This document shows, in pieces, positions 3,802 through 9,194 of a DNA stretch of 10,600 nucleotides (positions within the stretch are counted from its first letter, which is position 1; each line of letters begins with the position of its first letter). The stretch lies in the IMG/VR virus record IMGVR_UViG_2778261172_000008; one strand, 5' to 3'. The notes under the pieces were generated by a model. It saw only the letters and a program-made list of their open reading frames with translations, had not been told where the DNA came from and did no database searches. The position numbers were made by a program, and so were the translations under genes. The stretch is from a virus (lineage: Duplodnaviria > Heunggongvirae > Uroviricota > Caudoviricetes).

Positions 3802-4081
3802 GCGTCCTGTCTCCCCGGTCTTTCTGCTGGGCGAGAAAATCGCGGCACAGGCCTTTGGCTTTCAGTTCATTCAGCACAAAATCAATATCTTCATTCAGGT
3901 AGCTGAAAATATGCGGAATGTAGAGCTGATGCAGGCCGGAGAGTTCACGGTGAATCAAATCACCCCCAACAAACTGGGATACGGCGCTGGCGCGGTTGAG
4001 CTTATGGTAAGCCTCAATGCTGAGGTGTTCACGGGCGTCATGACGCGCTGAGACGGTCTGAGGGGCTTTTTTATTACGCAC
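3794..4081 (-). CDS. 95-aa left-operon protein with GTG start; candidate P4 epsilon (helper derepression/antirepressor) homolog
   Basis: The ORF track shows a 147-aa frame (3794..4237) whose first ~50 residues are Cys/Pro/Arg-rich and lack an SD. In the same frame a GTG at 4081 is preceded by GGAGG (4088-4092) with a 6-nt spacer, giving a 95-aa product ([10 protein letters not shown]...GDRTHV). The epsilon assignment rests only on my recollection that epsilon is about 95 aa and on position. Confidence 0.5.
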
Positions 4082-4271
4082 GGGACACCTCCACCACCGG
4101 CAGACGGGCAGCAAGGGAGAGCACATAGTCACGGACAAGGGAACGGCGGGCACTGCGTTCATCACCGGCGACGGTGCGAAGCATGCAGATACGGGGATGA
4201 CGGTCTGCGCGACGGACAGCCGCAAACACAAAGACAAATTCAGGGTGTGAAGGGGTAAGGGTTGTAGCCAT
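4074..4271 (-). CDS. First ORF of the left operon (65 aa); kil/eta-like candidate
   Basis: In-frame ATG at 4271 within the long 4074..4718 ORF, with SD GGAGG (4280-4284) 8 nt upstream. Stop overlaps the GTG start of the next ORF by 8 bp. The SD lies inside the seqC-like element. Identity with P4 kil/eta is inferred from position only. Confidence 0.4.
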
Positions 4272-4299
4272 GATGGCAGCCTCCGTTAGATAGCAGGTT

Positions 4300-4395
4300 A
4301 CGCTATCGCCGGAGTTTCCACGCTCGATGGCGATAGCCCAGACGGGGGTGGAAATACCGGCTCTAACGGATACCGGCCAGCCCGGAGGCTGCCCC
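4300..4395 (-). ncRNA. CI-RNA-like immunity RNA region (seqB) with cognate seqA/seqC target sites
   Basis: Seen: plus 4362-4369 TCTAACGG and 4383-4393 CGGAGGCTGCC are the exact reverse complement of 4275-4290 GGCAGCCTCCGTTAGA (seqC-like); 4550-4558 CCGTTAGAT (seqA-like) is also complementary to 4362-4369. A 9-bp stem (4302-4310/4329-4337) lies between. Known: P4 immunity uses a small CI RNA whose seqB pairs with seqA and seqC on the nascent transcript to force termination. RNA ends are not determinable. Confidence 0.45.
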
Positions 4396-4604
4396 GCCTG
4401 AGCTACCATTGACTCTGCGGCATAATGAGCGGACGCGGGCAGGATGCACGGAGTGCCATCTGCTCGACTGACCACACACCACACCATAATCTGGCGCTCT
4501 GTGGCGTTGATTGCGACACAAAAAAAGACGCATGGCGCGTCATATGTCGCCGTTAGATTGCTCGGGTTTCCACGCCCGGCTGCCGATTTTGCGACAGCGG
4601 AAAA

Positions 4605-4634
4605 ACTATATCCGCAAATGCCGGAAAAAGGCAA
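4605..4634 (-). promoter_or_regulatory. Candidate sigma70 early promoter (PLE-like) for the immunity region/left operon
   Basis: Minus strand: -35 TTGCCT (plus 4629-4634), 18-bp spacer, -10 TATAGT (plus 4605-4610). Lies 36 bp downstream of the vis stop and about 40 nt upstream of the seqA-like element. Confidence 0.35.
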
Positions 4635-4669
4635 GCCAGAAAAAGGGACTTTTTGCAGAACAGGCATCA

Positions 4670-4936
4670 TCATGCGTCGTACCCCCGTTTGCGTCCGGCA
4701 ATGCGCCCGGCCATCCATGCGGTGACTTCAGAGTGCAGCCAGGCCACATTTTTACCGCCAAGACTCACCTGTGGCGGAAATTCCCCCTTACGGATGAGTT
4801 CATAGATGGTCGAGCGTGACAGGCCGCACAGGTGCATCACTTCCGGCAGACGTAAAAAACGCTCCTGCGTGATGTTCGGCAGCGGCATCAGTGGCGTCAC
4901 AGGGGCGGGAGACGGGGAAGAAAAAACAGCTTGCAT
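4670..4936 (-). CDS. vis: Vis / AlpA-family small DNA-binding regulator (excision/late-promoter regulator)
   Basis: 88 aa, the length of P4 orf88/Vis. AlpA-type helix-turn-helix signature [27 protein letters not shown]. First gene of the minus-strand operon, divergent from sid. Confidence 0.8.
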
Positions 4937-5081
4937 CGGGCTACCTCGTTAATGTCCATACAGCACCGGATAAGTCCGTCCGGCTTCGGGTAGCGCTTTA
5001 TTTTGTGAATATTTTCAGCAGACGCAACAGGGGGGATTTGTTCCGGCAGCCTTACAATGCTTGTGTGTTTTTTGTTCATCT

Positions 5082-5121
5082 CCACTTAAAGTCATTTAAA
5101 GCCACTTAAAGCAATTTGTAA
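5082..5121. repeat. Four tandem 10-bp units (CCACTTAAAG / TCATTTAAAG / CCACTTAAAG / CAATTTGTAA) in the vis-sid intergenic region
   Basis: Read directly from the sequence; one-helical-turn periodicity upstream of vis suggests phased protein binding sites or intrinsically bent DNA. Confidence 0.6.
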
Positions 5122-5174
5122 TTTTTATAGTGAAATACAAATCGTTTTTTCTTATTCATTCCCGGCGAATTAAT

Positions 5175-5345
5175 AAAAACAAACAGTAATAAACAGCACA
5201 AAAAGCCCATCAACGGGTGAACAGTGGTGAACAGACGGTGAACAGTCATTACTGCGATTGTTCACCATTTAACTTACTGTATTACTTATCTTTTTTCTTA
5301 TGGTGAACAGAGGTGAACAGTAAAATATAAAAAAACAAACAGTAA
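5175..5345. other. Replication origin (ori): six type I iterons bracketed by a 15-bp direct repeat
   Basis: GGTGAACA at 5216-5223, 5226-5233, 5237-5244, 5302-5309, 5312-5319 and TGTTCACC at 5259-5266: the same octamer as in crr. AAAAACAAACAGTAA occurs at 5175-5189 and 5331-5345 on either side. Known: P4 ori and crr share alpha-binding iterons and lie about 4.5 kb apart. Confidence 0.75.
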
Positions 5346-5400
5346 GCCGGTTTTTCCTGCGACCTTTTCCTGGCTTGCCGGTGTGAGGATGAGTCTCCTG

Positions 5401-5470
5401 TGTCAGGGCTGGCACATCTGCAATGCGTCGTGTTGTTGTCCGGTGTACGTCACAATTTTCTCAACCTGAA
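5401..5470 (+). promoter_or_regulatory. Psid-like late promoter region with Ogr/delta-type activator dyad
   Basis: Perfect TGT-N12-ACA at 5437-5454 and an imperfect TGT-N10-ACA at 5401-5416, 34-87 bp upstream of the sid ATG; possible -10 CACAAT at 5451-5456; no -35. Known: P2/P4 late promoters are activated through TGT-N12-ACA dyads. Exact register relative to the TSS is not determinable here. Confidence 0.4.
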
Positions 5471-5487
5471 GTGACGAGGAGCCGAAA

Positions 5488-6222
5488 ATGTCTGACAACA
5501 CCATCCCTGAATATCTGCAATCCGCGCTGGCACAACTGGAAAAGGCCAGAGCCGCCCATCTTGAGAACGCCCGTCTGATGGATGAGACCGTCACGGCCAT
5601 TGAACGGGCAGAGCAGGAAAAAAATGCGCTGGCGCAGGCCGACGGAAACGACGCTGACGACTGGCGCACGGCCTTTCGTGCAGCCGGTGGTGTCCTGAGC
5701 GACGAGCTGAAACAGCGCCACATTGAGCGCGTGGCACGCCGGGAGCTGGTACAGGAATATGACAATCTGGCCGTGGTGCTGAATTTTGAACGCGAACGCC
5801 TGAAAGGGGCGTGTGACAGCACGGCCACCGCCTACCGGAAGGCACATCATCACCTTCTGAGTCTGTATGCAGAGCATGAGCTGGAACACGCCCTGAATGA
5901 AACCTGTGAGGCGCTTGTCCGGGCAATGCATCTGAGCATTCTGGTACAGGAAAATCCGCTCGCCAACACCACCGGCCATCAGGGCTACGTCGCACCGGAA
6001 AAGGCTGTCATGCAGCAGGTGAAATCATCGCTGGAACAGAAAATTAAACAGATGCAAATCAGCCTCACCGGCGAGCCGGTTCTCCGGCTGACCGGACTGT
6101 CAGCGGCAACACTCCCGCACATGGATTATGAGGTGGCAGGCACACCGGCACAGCGCAAGGTGTGGCAGGACAAAATAGACCAGCAGGGTGCAGAGCTTAA
6201 GGCCAGAGGACTGCTGTCATGA
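5488..6222 (+). CDS. sid: Sid, capsid size determination protein (external scaffold redirecting helper capsid to small size)
   Basis: 244 aa, the length of P4 Sid. First gene of the late operon, SD AGGAG 7 nt upstream. Stop overlaps the delta start (ATGA at 6219-6222). Confidence 0.88.
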   Translation: MSDNTIPEYLQSALAQLEKARAAHLENARLMDETVTAIERAEQEKNALAQADGNDADDWRTAFRAAGGVLSDELKQRHIERVARRELVQEYDNLAVVLNFERERLKGACDSTATAYRKAHHHLLSLYAEHELEHALNETCEALVRAMHLSILVQENPLANTTGHQGYVAPEKAVMQQVKSSLEQKIKQMQISLTGEPVLRLTGLSAATLPHMDYEVAGTPAQRKVWQDKIDQQGAELKARGLLS

Positions 6223-7730: not shown

Positions 7731-9194
7731 TTATTTGACATTCGATGCAGAAACCTTATTAGGCCTAGCATCAATCAAGACTAAATCCTTACCTTCTTTA
7801 ATCCCAAGTTCTTTGAAAGTCTTAAACAATCCAGACAATTCTCGATCAGTAAAATACAAAATAACCTTTATTGATTTTTTTGTTTCATTTGCCGCCTCAT
7901 ACACTTTAACCTGATTTGCCAGGTTCTGTTTAAGCTTGGAGTTACTAGCCAGTTTGAATTCAACCAATGTTTTATCTTTCGAACCTCTCGATATTTTGTA
8001 GTCAACGGGACCACGACCATTATTTACTTCACTATTGACATCAGAAATACTAGCAAACCATGTTAATCTAAACATTAACTGCAAATCAGCTTCACGCTTA
8101 ATTGGGACACCATTCAAATAGAATACTTTATAGCCATCATTATTTTCTATTACCTGTTTAAGATAACAGACTCGCTTATAGGCCTCTTCGAAAGTATCAT
8201 CCTTTGAACTAAAGAACTCCTGATGTTTATTAAAGATTGTATCAACCAAAAGTTGGACAGCTTCAATATACCTTTGCTCAGTTTCGCTAACCTTTGCATT
8301 ACTATCACGTTTAGCACCCCCAGAGTTTTGTTCTTTATAACGAATATAATAATCAATAAAACTCGGGTAATTCTTAATTGTCAAATCAGCAGCGGACTCT
8401 CGTTCCTTTTTCTTTGGAGAGTCTGGGAGACATCTATTGAAATAATCAGACAATTGTCCACGCAATTGATCATTAGGGATACTTTCACATATATCTCTAA
8501 AGTCCTCGATCATTTCATTTCTGTTAATCCAAGTTTCATCTTTTGTGAGTATATCTCTCGGAGTTAAAAGAACATAATCTCCAGCATATGTTGGCAACGT
8601 GAATTTTTTACTCATCCAACTTCTGGTTTCGTAATTAAATTCAACTTTTGGTACTAAGTGTTCAGAGAGATATTTACTATCTATATTTTCTTTAGAGAAA
8701 TCTTCAGTATACTTCAGTAAAAACGATTTAATTAAATTAGTGGTAAAATCACTAATACTATCCTTTCCTACCCCCTCCTTAATCAAACACAATTTTTCAA
8801 GATGACTTCCCTCAGTAATTTCCTCTTTACCAAAGTTTTTTAAAATACTTGAAAATGAGGTGGTTAAGGAATTTGCAAAATCAATACCCAATCCACTCCC
8901 ACCGTTCCCAACCATGCTATAACCCAGCCAGTTTTGTTTTACCTCAGGAAATAAAAACCAACTTTTGATTAAACCTCGATTTAATTCTCCATTCTGAGAA
9001 CGATCTCTTAAGAAAGAAACATATTTAATTATCCCCTGATGTAAATCTATATATTTCTCATTATTAAATAACAAAAACGGATCAATAAATAGCGGCAAAT
9101 CATTAATCAGAGAAATATTAAATGCACCATACTCTTTTATTTTTTCAGGAGATACATTAAAAAAATCTGAAAAATATATTCTTAACTTTGGCAT
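7731..9194 (-). CDS. Hotspot cargo protein (487 aa), unknown family; C-terminal PD-(D/E)xK-like nuclease motif; candidate anti-phage defence protein
   Basis: Single uninterrupted ORF with SD AGGAGG 5 nt upstream of the ATG. Composition roughly 25-40% GC in sampled stretches versus about 60% in the P4 core. It occupies the cos-int interval where P4 carries gop/beta/cII. Motifs: PVD (D398) followed 14 residues later by EFK (E412-x-K414) in alternating hydrophobic context; glycine-rich VGNGGSGLG at residues 95-103. No family recognised by eye. Confidence 0.85.
   Translation of the reverse strand: MPKLRIYFSDFFNVSPEKIKEYGAFNISLINDLPLFIDPFLLFNNEKYIDLHQGIIKYVSFLRDRSQNGELNRGLIKSWFLFPEVKQNWLGYSMVGNGGSGLGIDFANSLTTSFSSILKNFGKEEITEGSHLEKLCLIKEGVGKDSISDFTTNLIKSFLLKYTEDFSKENIDSKYLSEHLVPKVEFNYETRSWMSKKFTLPTYAGDYVLLTPRDILTKDETWINRNEMIEDFRDICESIPNDQLRGQLSDYFNRCLPDSPKKKERESAADLTIKNYPSFIDYYIRYKEQNSGGAKRDSNAKVSETEQRYIEAVQLLVDTIFNKHQEFFSSKDDTFEEAYKRVCYLKQVIENNDGYKVFYLNGVPIKREADLQLMFRLTWFASISDVNSEVNNGRGPVDYKISRGSKDKTLVEFKLASNSKLKQNLANQVKVYEAANETKKSIKVILYFTDRELSGLFKTFKELGIKEGKDLVLIDARPNKVSASNVK

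Follow-up and report, generated by a model that had tools for sequence, protein, structure and literature searches.

The question raised by this locus is whether the stretch that RefSeq records as a single 199-aa Icd-like protein (4673..4074, minus strand), with no RNA gene annotated there, encodes the RNA-based immunity known from satellite phage P4, and if so, which elements that immunity would recognise. The window, by which we mean the whole 10,600-nucleotide stretch of viral DNA analysed here (IMG/VR record IMGVR_UViG_2778261172_000008), had received an initial annotation made from its letters alone, in which complementary seqA, seqB (CI RNA) and seqC elements were proposed to form a P4-style module. 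We consider it highly probable, at roughly 90%, that this region provides a P4-like satellite with its lysogenic immunity, by the same mechanism as in P4. The module is a known system, and the one trait that sets it apart is its specificity allele, which, as read from the blocks described below, appears to be new and to differ from that of P4.

The genomic setting identifies the window, by sequence comparison, as a P4-like satellite prophage of Escherichia coli. The P4 core genes are present in P4 order and collinear with P4 record X51522 (alpha, orf106, orf151, epsilon, kil, vis, sid, delta, psu, a cargo gene, int), and Pfam matches were found to the alpha domains, Derepression (epsilon), AlpA, Ogr_Delta and Psu. 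Window positions 4000-5000 align with X51522 8094-9094 at 96.1% identity without indels, which gives a coordinate offset of 4094 from window to P4. In an E. coli chromosome 98.9% identical to the window, int adjoins tRNA-Leu, the same integration site next to int that P4 uses. A search of a phage collection with the window returned full-coverage matches to P4 records only, while 2694 of 5426 complete E. coli genomes contained matching DNA, with at least 80% of the window covered in 233 of them. Upstream of the module lies the vis-equivalent gene, at the position equivalent to P4 ORF88. Between psu and int, where P4 carries gop/beta/cII as cargo, the window has a 487-aa gene. Searches of Pfam and NCBIfam gave no match for the protein it encodes, and its sole match was to a PADLOC candidate system. 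The features of the module are collected in Table 1.

Table 1. Features of the predicted immunity module and its upstream neighbour, in window coordinates.
Feature	Position	Strand	Basis or remark
vis-equivalent (orf88), AlpA-family HTH protein	4670..4936	-	Pfam PF05930, 7.3e-21; upstream of module
eta-like nested frame, 199 codons	4074..4673	-	through PLE, seqA, CI and seqC, in frame into kil
PLE-equivalent constitutive promoter (predicted)	4605..4634	-	-35 TTGCCT 4634..4629, 18-nt spacer, -10 TATAGT 4610..4605
isrK-family leader RNA = P4 seqA element	4521..4598	-	Rfam RF01394, 72.5 bits, E 2.3e-14
Block A2, GUGGAAA, 8-nt loop of leader hairpin 2	4567..4573	-	complementary to CI block B2
Block A1 (seqA core), UCUAACGG	4550..4557	-	complementary to CI hairpin-2 loop
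CI RNA gene	4326..4413	-	Rfam RF01695 (C4), 76.2 bits, E 6.6e-14
Block B1 (seqB core), CCGUUAGA, loop of CI hairpin 2	4362..4369	-	P4 has CCUGUGAA
Block B2, UUUCCAC, single-stranded junction 3' of CI hairpin 2	4348..4354	-	P4 has UUCUCAC
Hairpin of 3' strand of CI closing stem (GCUAUCGCC) and downstream GGCGAUAGC	4302..4337	-	consensus fold, 119 relatives
Block C1 (seqC core), UCUAACGGA, 9 nt complementary to CI hairpin-2 loop	4282..4290	-	overlaps first three bases of GGAGG SD (4284..4280)
kil-equivalent gene, 65 aa, Icd-like cell-division inhibitor	4074..4271	-	NCBIfam NF033153 phage_ICD_like, 1.6e-21

Transcription of the module can be assigned to a single candidate promoter. The PLE-like site was the only sigma-70-like site detected by a promoter scan across 4200-5500, and its -10 element falls on the stretch that P4 record X02534 marks as "consensus -10". 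Seven nucleotides downstream of this promoter begins the match to the isrK family, which is full length and exceeds the gathering score of 50 by more than 22 bits. The leader is laid out as hairpin 1, hairpin 2, a single-stranded seqA core and then the terminator t1, a Rho-independent terminator found by a terminator scan (stem 4541..4527 followed by a T7 run) at the position of P4 t1; its stems covary in the consensus fold of 119 relatives. The isrK RNA is the seqA RNA, and the C4 and isrK families are the structural homologues of P4 CI RNA and seqA (PMC4825925, PMC3632133). In P4, the CI RNA pairs with seqA and seqC and thereby terminates transcription of the left operon (PMC3632133, PMC4825925).

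The match of the CI RNA gene to the C4 family spans positions 1-87 of 87, and its 76.2 bits compare with a gathering score of 45. The CI RNA is predicted to fold as a long closing stem around hairpin 1 (CAGCC/GGCUG) and hairpin 2 (GCCGGU/GCCGGU), with a minimum free energy of -48.1 kcal/mol (z = -4.4). All 28 consensus pairs of this fold are retained in at least 118 of the 119 relatives, and many of them covary, with two to four pair types. The P4 CI RNA is processed by RNase P at its 5' end to give a stable RNA of approximately 77-80 nt (79 nt), and the terminator t4, like what is called kil and eta here, also follows P4. Since the window RNA has a tRNA-like stem followed by CCA, and P4 CI is processed by RNase P, the mature CI RNA probably extends from about 4407 to about 4328, ending in GCCA (4331..4328). 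The 3' strand of the closing stem can alternatively pair with downstream sequence to form the hairpin at 4337..4302, which is mutually exclusive with the base of the closing stem and whose pairs covary in the same 119 relatives. Block C2, a GUGGAAA at 4321..4315 (minus strand), sits in the loop of this hairpin.

The complementarities on which the initial annotation was built were all recovered by direct reading of the window. Plus-strand positions 4275-4290 are GGCAGCCTCCGTTAGA, the reverse complement of which, TCTAACGGAGGCTGCC, equals 4362-4369 (TCTAACGG) joined to 4386-4393 (AGGCTGCC). The block at 4383-4393 is CGGAGGCTGCC, and the CGG of it overlaps the first complementary block; the 13-nt insert at 4370-4382 is ATACCGGCCAGCC, as had been described, and 4550-4558 is CCGTTAGAT. 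The sequence TCTAACGG occurs at exactly three sites in the 10.6-kb window, all of them the expected ones and in the expected orientations, against an expectation of 0.26, and three occurrences were reached in 1 of 200 shuffles. A second triplet, absent from that first description, is formed by GTGGAAA at 4573..4567 and 4321..4315 and TTTCCAC at 4354..4348 (all on the minus strand), and these are the only three such sites in the whole window. The CI RNA thus exposes two blocks, each with targets both upstream and downstream of the RNA gene: B1 with A1 and C1, and B2 with A2 and C2. For block 1, UCUAACGG stands in seqA (4557..4550) and in seqC (4290..4283), opposite CCGUUAGA in the loop of CI hairpin 2.

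The downstream copy of block 1 falls at a translation start, as the initial annotation had proposed in placing seqC at the ribosome-binding site of the first open reading frame (ORF) of the left operon. The ATG at 4271..4269 (minus strand) starts a 65-codon ORF with an Icd-like product, which is the first ORF translated from PLE transcripts and which we refer to as kil. Since the 9-bp C1 duplex (4290..4282) includes the GGA of GGAGG, seqC overlaps the Shine-Dalgarno sequence. The P4 Rho-dependent terminator timm has been placed at X51522 8365-8209 (PMC3177188), and applying the offset of 4094 to these coordinates puts its equivalent, by homology, at 4271..4115, within kil.

Comparison with P4 shows where the specificity of the element is likely to reside. 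The two immunity regions have promoter and terminator in common, as well as the structure of CI, kil, the nested eta frame and the genes on either side. Differences in leader, CI and seqC are mostly confined to six short blocks that change jointly. Block 1 is UUCACAGG/CCUGUGAA in P4 and UCUAACGG/CCGUUAGA in the window (4 of 8 positions differ), and block 2 is GUGAGAA/UUCUCAC in P4 and GUGGAAA/UUUCCAC in the window (2 of 7 positions differ). The matching changes are present at all three sites, in seqA, CI and seqC. This accords with the earlier suggestion that the immunity specificity could be compared with that of P4, and shows that the two differ. Cognate block duplexes of the window have energies of -11.3, -13.5 and -8.9 kcal/mol (cognate range -8.9 to -14.0), whereas the values for the window CI paired with P4 targets are -3.3 and -4.3 kcal/mol, and cross duplexes in both directions range from -3.3 to -5.0 kcal/mol. 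The seqA duplexes are short, at 8 + 7 bp. Co-folding of the whole CI RNA with the leader or with seqC gave similar energies for cognate and non-cognate partners, in a nested model that excludes loop-loop contacts.

The cognate duplexes are strong and the cross duplexes weak, and the differences from P4 in block 1 (4 of 8 positions) and block 2 (2 of 7) are matched at three sites. We therefore predict that the element would confer immunity against itself and none against P4, with the converse holding for P4, so that the two would be heteroimmune. Homoimmunity with P4 would entail a seqB identical or fully complementary to P4 seqA/seqC, and the window seqB departs from this. Heteroimmune P4-like elements are already known: the P4-like satellite retronphage phiR73 is reported to be heteroimmune with respect to P4 (Sabbattini et al. 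1996, Virology 216:389, as cited in PMC7567579). It provides a precedent for P4-like elements whose specificity has been shifted by changes in complementary RNA blocks, and differs from the window element, which lacks a retron and is located at tRNA-Leu rather than selC.

Blocks of 7-9 nt are short enough that complementarity between them could in principle be a chance inverted repeat, and this was addressed by comparing the module across related elements. We assembled three sets of related loci: 80 from IMG/VR with a near-identical Kil; 120 drawn from a collection of species-representative genomes by a search pattern that left the blocks free; and 119 further viral contigs that were left out of the statistics. 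Pairing was assessed in an alignment of 119 distinct sequences placed by sequence homology and not by complementarity. In this alignment, A1-B1 was paired at 98.4% and C1-B1 at 97.8%, against approximately 66% when permuted and at most 53% in slid controls, while A2-B2 and C2-B2 were each paired at 99.9%, with covariation in the three central columns of A2-B2. Up to four Watson-Crick pair types were observed per column in the block pairings.

A position-free test gave the same picture. We looked in the flanks for a 7-mer from the loop's reverse complement. Among 189 loci, 159 carried it upstream and 167 downstream when loop and flank belonged to the same element, compared with 5.6% and 2.1% when the flanks were those of other elements. 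The complement of block 2 was found in the element's own flanks in 188/189 (upstream) and 187/189 (downstream) cases, versus 2.4% and 0.4% for the flanks of others. In the window, all three of the block occurrences lie at homologous positions, and the blocks are conserved and covary in hundreds of loci. The comparative data thus refute a chance origin, to which we assign practically no probability. Together with the 96.1% identity and shared gene order with P4, the Rfam matches to C4 and isrK, and the compensatory changes relative to P4, the pairing kept at 98-100% among the 119 distinct relatives supports the P4-style RNA immunity first proposed.

The same relatives bear on whether the blocks could be constrained by protein coding alone, since they lie inside a long ORF. 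The eta-like frame begins with an ATG that overlaps the vis stop codon (ATGA), and it is free of stops in 57 of 59 distinct close relatives, in which the other two frames carry 2-9 stops. Spacer lengths in relatives are 62, 86, 98 or 107 nt, so that indels come in multiples of three, and older P4 records annotate the region as a 137-aa "cI protein", much as the RefSeq coding sequence makes it a 199-aa Icd-like protein. Against a purely coding constraint, variable sites upstream of kil are spread equally over codon positions 1, 2 and 3 (20/20/20 in the spacer, compared with 2/0/5 in kil), the blocks change by compensatory RNA-level substitutions at three sites at once, and the Rfam structure models score far above their gathering scores. 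The lack of third-position bias and the covariation led us to reject coding as the sole cause of the blocks, an alternative that the initial annotation had itself raised and that we now regard as very improbable. An open frame without codon-position bias fits translation through the region, as eta, and not a conserved protein. We take the eta-like frame of the window to be P4 eta. Forti et al. 1999 reportedly described P4 eta as a nested frame, with transcripts from the late promoter being translated through the region and termination thereby prevented.

The module also has counterparts outside the P4-like satellites. The P1-like phage D6 has an isrK-like/C4/icd layout with the same two-block complementarity, and the immI regions of P1, P7 and D6 resemble the window in having a C4-family RNA with an isrK-like leader upstream and an Icd-like first gene. 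The ribosome-binding site and start sequence of immI, GGAGGCUGCCAnnAUGGCUAC, is almost identical to that of the window. Recognition in immI likewise runs through two blocks, in its nomenclature a'/b' against a1b1 and a2b2. Since Kil is Icd-like and D6 shares both the layout and the complementarity, we consider the window module homologous to immI of P1/P7, where the c4 RNA blocks the ribosome-binding site and sets P1/P7 heteroimmunity (PMC12197685). The systems differ in what they control: the operon downstream of the P1-type module encodes an antirepressor (ant), whereas that of the window encodes satellite replication and helper-derepression genes. They also differ in the repressor, which in P1 is primarily the protein C1, while the immunity factor of P4-like elements is the CI RNA.

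The initial annotation described seqC as complementary to two blocks of CI separated by a 13-nt insert, and one can envisage seqC and CI pairing over 16 nt. In this geometry seqC would contact the hairpin-2 loop together with the hairpin-1 5' strand (GGCAGCCUCC), so that hairpin 1 is opened and the whole GGAGG is covered. Such a 16-nt complementarity does exist in the window and in P4, and it would have the appeal of masking the entire Shine-Dalgarno sequence, but it would leave 13 nt bulged out and could form only if a GC hairpin of 5 bp melted. The two parts of the proposed geometry fared differently among the 119 relatives. The block in the hairpin-2 loop is kept paired at 98-100%, while GGAGGCUGCC pairs with hairpin 1 at 89.9%, compared with 90.2% when permuted, without covariation, and one position is unpaired and uncompensated in 41 of 119 sequences. 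The hairpin-1 extension of seqB was rejected as a conserved pairing, its pairing being no better than permuted. In D6 the same GGAGGCUGCC precedes icd, yet hairpin 1 of its C4 RNA differs in sequence. Given the lack of covariation and this combination in D6, we read the similarity between GGAGGCUGCC and hairpin 1 as a product of a conserved ribosome-binding site and gene start on the one hand and a conserved hairpin on the other, rather than as a selected pairing, and consider the 16-nt pairing improbable. The second functional block is GUGGAAA/UUUCCAC, and not GGAGGCUGCC against hairpin 1.

A further question is whether the leader acts only as a target of CI. In Salmonella, Gifsy-1 IsrK / STnc1160 consists of an isrK leader followed by a C4-like processed RNA complementary to the leader (PMC4825925). 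This order of leader and C4-like RNA is common to Gifsy-1 and the window module, and the two differ in that Gifsy-1 IsrK is a trans-acting activator of translation for an antiterminator-inhibitor operon in a lambdoid prophage. To our knowledge, no such role as a trans-activator is known for P4-like leaders. The short PLE-t1 transcript of the window might nevertheless be a trans-acting regulator or decoy of its own, either titrating CI or activating a downstream gene as in Gifsy-1. The leader matches the isrK family and forms a compact, terminated 78-nt RNA that displays both blocks; Gifsy-1 IsrK has its own read-through mRNA as a trans target (PMC4825925), and an IsrK-like element was found by TraDIS to be required in Salmonella P4-like prophages (PMC3632133). 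P4 genetics, on the other side, has seqA as a target that promotes termination (summarised in PMC4825925), and a trans-acting leader would supplement the main mechanism rather than replace it. We therefore think this role unlikely, though somewhat less so than the extended 16-nt pairing, and retain the reading in which the leader serves as the seqA target of CI.

The mechanism that we propose for this P4-like module is as follows, with RNA processing, the sites of termination, the involvement of Rho there and the phenotype of immunity carried over by analogy from the P4 literature. PLE (4634..4605) would be constitutive and would drive leftward transcription on the minus strand, producing a primary transcript that runs from the isrK-like leader with seqA through the CI RNA gene and seqC to kil. 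CI would be excised from this transcript, as in P4, where RNase P acts at the 5' end and the stable product is approximately 80 nt, and would then act in trans on nascent transcripts. Each target would be recognised through two short exposed CI blocks, the loop CCGUUAGA (B1) with UCUAACGG and UUUCCAC (B2) with GUGGAAA, the latter being presented in a hairpin loop by both targets. Pairing of CI with seqA would favour the adjacent intrinsic terminator t1, and CI would in this way regulate itself. Pairing with seqC would cover the start of the kil Shine-Dalgarno sequence so that kil is not translated, and the untranslated RNA would then be terminated at the Rho-dependent timm within kil and at an upstream site. 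Termination would keep the replication genes epsilon, orf151 and alpha silent, while transcripts from the upstream late promoter would be translated throughout in the eta frame and so escape it.

The relatives also show how varied the blocks are. Among 81 close relatives including the window, the two independent triplets occur in approximately 20 combinations, the window's own combination being found 8 times. The 189 usable loci contain 38 loop alleles, 6 junction alleles and 52 combinations, with hosts that include Escherichia, Citrobacter, Klebsiella, Serratia, Erwinia, Pantoea, Yersinia, Aeromonas, Pseudomonas, Cupriavidus and Aquitalea, and the loop allele of the window was also found in genomes of Kosakonia, Citrobacter and Atlantibacter. 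Where two satellites reside in the same genome, their alleles differ in 8 of 9 pairs, as a random draw would also give.

In this comparison, P4/C4-type immunity uses a recognition code of two modules, an 8-nt loop block and a 7-nt junction block with three variable central nucleotides, and every module is present three times, in seqA, in CI and in seqC. The modules reassort freely across Enterobacterales, Aeromonas, Pseudomonas and some Betaproteobacteria, and they lie inside an eta frame that stays open as its protein sequence drifts. We tentatively suggest, as a reading that we hold to be rather doubtful as a whole, that this population-level picture, if undescribed, would amount to a naturally occurring collection of orthogonal sets of antisense repressor and target. 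Selection for heteroimmunity between satellites would have shaped it, under a simultaneous constraint against stops in the eta frame. Literature searches did not find a survey of allele diversity in P4/C4-type RNA immunity, and a large census of P4-like satellites (PMC8628076) does not mention the RNA immunity system, so the reassorting two-module repertoire may be undescribed so far.

As a mechanism, this is established knowledge from P4 and P1. For the window, the module corrects the annotation. Because RefSeq calls the whole stretch a 199-aa "Icd-like protein" without an RNA gene, genome records at present do not show the regulators: a promoter, a leader with its terminator, an antisense RNA predicted to be processed, and the two targets of that RNA. 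P4-like DNA matching the window is present in about half of the complete E. coli genomes searched. The two reassorting blocks, at three sites in hundreds of elements, provide unusually clean covariation support for an intermolecular RNA pairing, and could be drawn on for orthogonal pairs of RNA repressor and target. From the specificity allele one can predict between which satellites superinfection or co-residence is possible, and this is relevant because satellites of this kind carry anti-phage cargo.

The immunity module is covered by a reading frame that RefSeq annotates as an "Icd-like protein". This frame spans the promoter, the leader, the CI RNA and seqC, and RefSeq annotates no RNA gene here. 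The frame stays open in 57 of 59 relatives and all indels within it are multiples of three, and comparison of the relatives revealed no third-position bias. In this it resembles the nested eta gene of P4, in which selection acts on translation itself and not on the protein sequence.

A hairpin that overlaps the 3' end of the CI RNA borrows one strand of the CI closing stem, the 3' one, which is thereby used a second time. Its loop exposes the downstream GUGGAAA block. The hairpin and the base of the CI stem cannot form at the same time, and the shared strand covaries with both of its partners. The hairpin may act as a switch for processing or termination, perhaps as the t4 site of P4.

Coordinates of the features discussed
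Feature	Sequence	Position	Strand	Source
199-aa "Icd-like protein" CDS	window	4074-4673	(-)	RefSeq annotation
Hairpin with GUGGAAA loop	window	4302-4337	(-)	
487-aa ORF, psu-int cargo position	window	7731-9194	(-)	
First CI-like pattern match	L217	10463-10496	(+)	
Second CI-like pattern match	L217	10779-10811	(+)	
Second tyrosine recombinase	L323	32-1297	(-)	
tRNA-Leu	L323	12264-12348	(-)	

Two IMG/VR relatives, L070 and L056, are natural recombinants between immunity types; their CI and seqC blocks belong to one type and their seqA blocks to another, and seqA is therefore non-cognate. In the related loci L015 and L060, the blocks have decayed and are no longer complementary. Two CI-like pattern matches lie 316 nt apart on the viral contig L217 (IMGVR_UViG_3300007747_000025), whose antisense RNA gene may have been duplicated in tandem. 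A search of genome contigs also returned L177, L133, L116 and L151, among which are a 44-kb plasmid of Apirhabdus apintestini carrying a P4-type CI module and short contigs and MAGs labelled Vagococcus and Clostridiales with exact P4-like modules, the latter probably reflecting contamination or mis-binning.

The E. coli F8 locus (L323) is 98.9% identical to the window element. There, a second tyrosine recombinase lies directly past the alpha end and a tRNA-Leu adjoins int, an arrangement that hints at several elements integrated in tandem at this tRNA gene.

Between psu and int, where P4 carries gop, beta and cII, the window instead has a 487-aa ORF. Pfam and NCBIfam searches returned no match to this ORF, but among the PADLOC candidate defence families it hits PDC-M36A (8.2e-21). 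The ORF probably belongs to the anti-phage cargo of the P4 hotspot that PMC9122126 describes.
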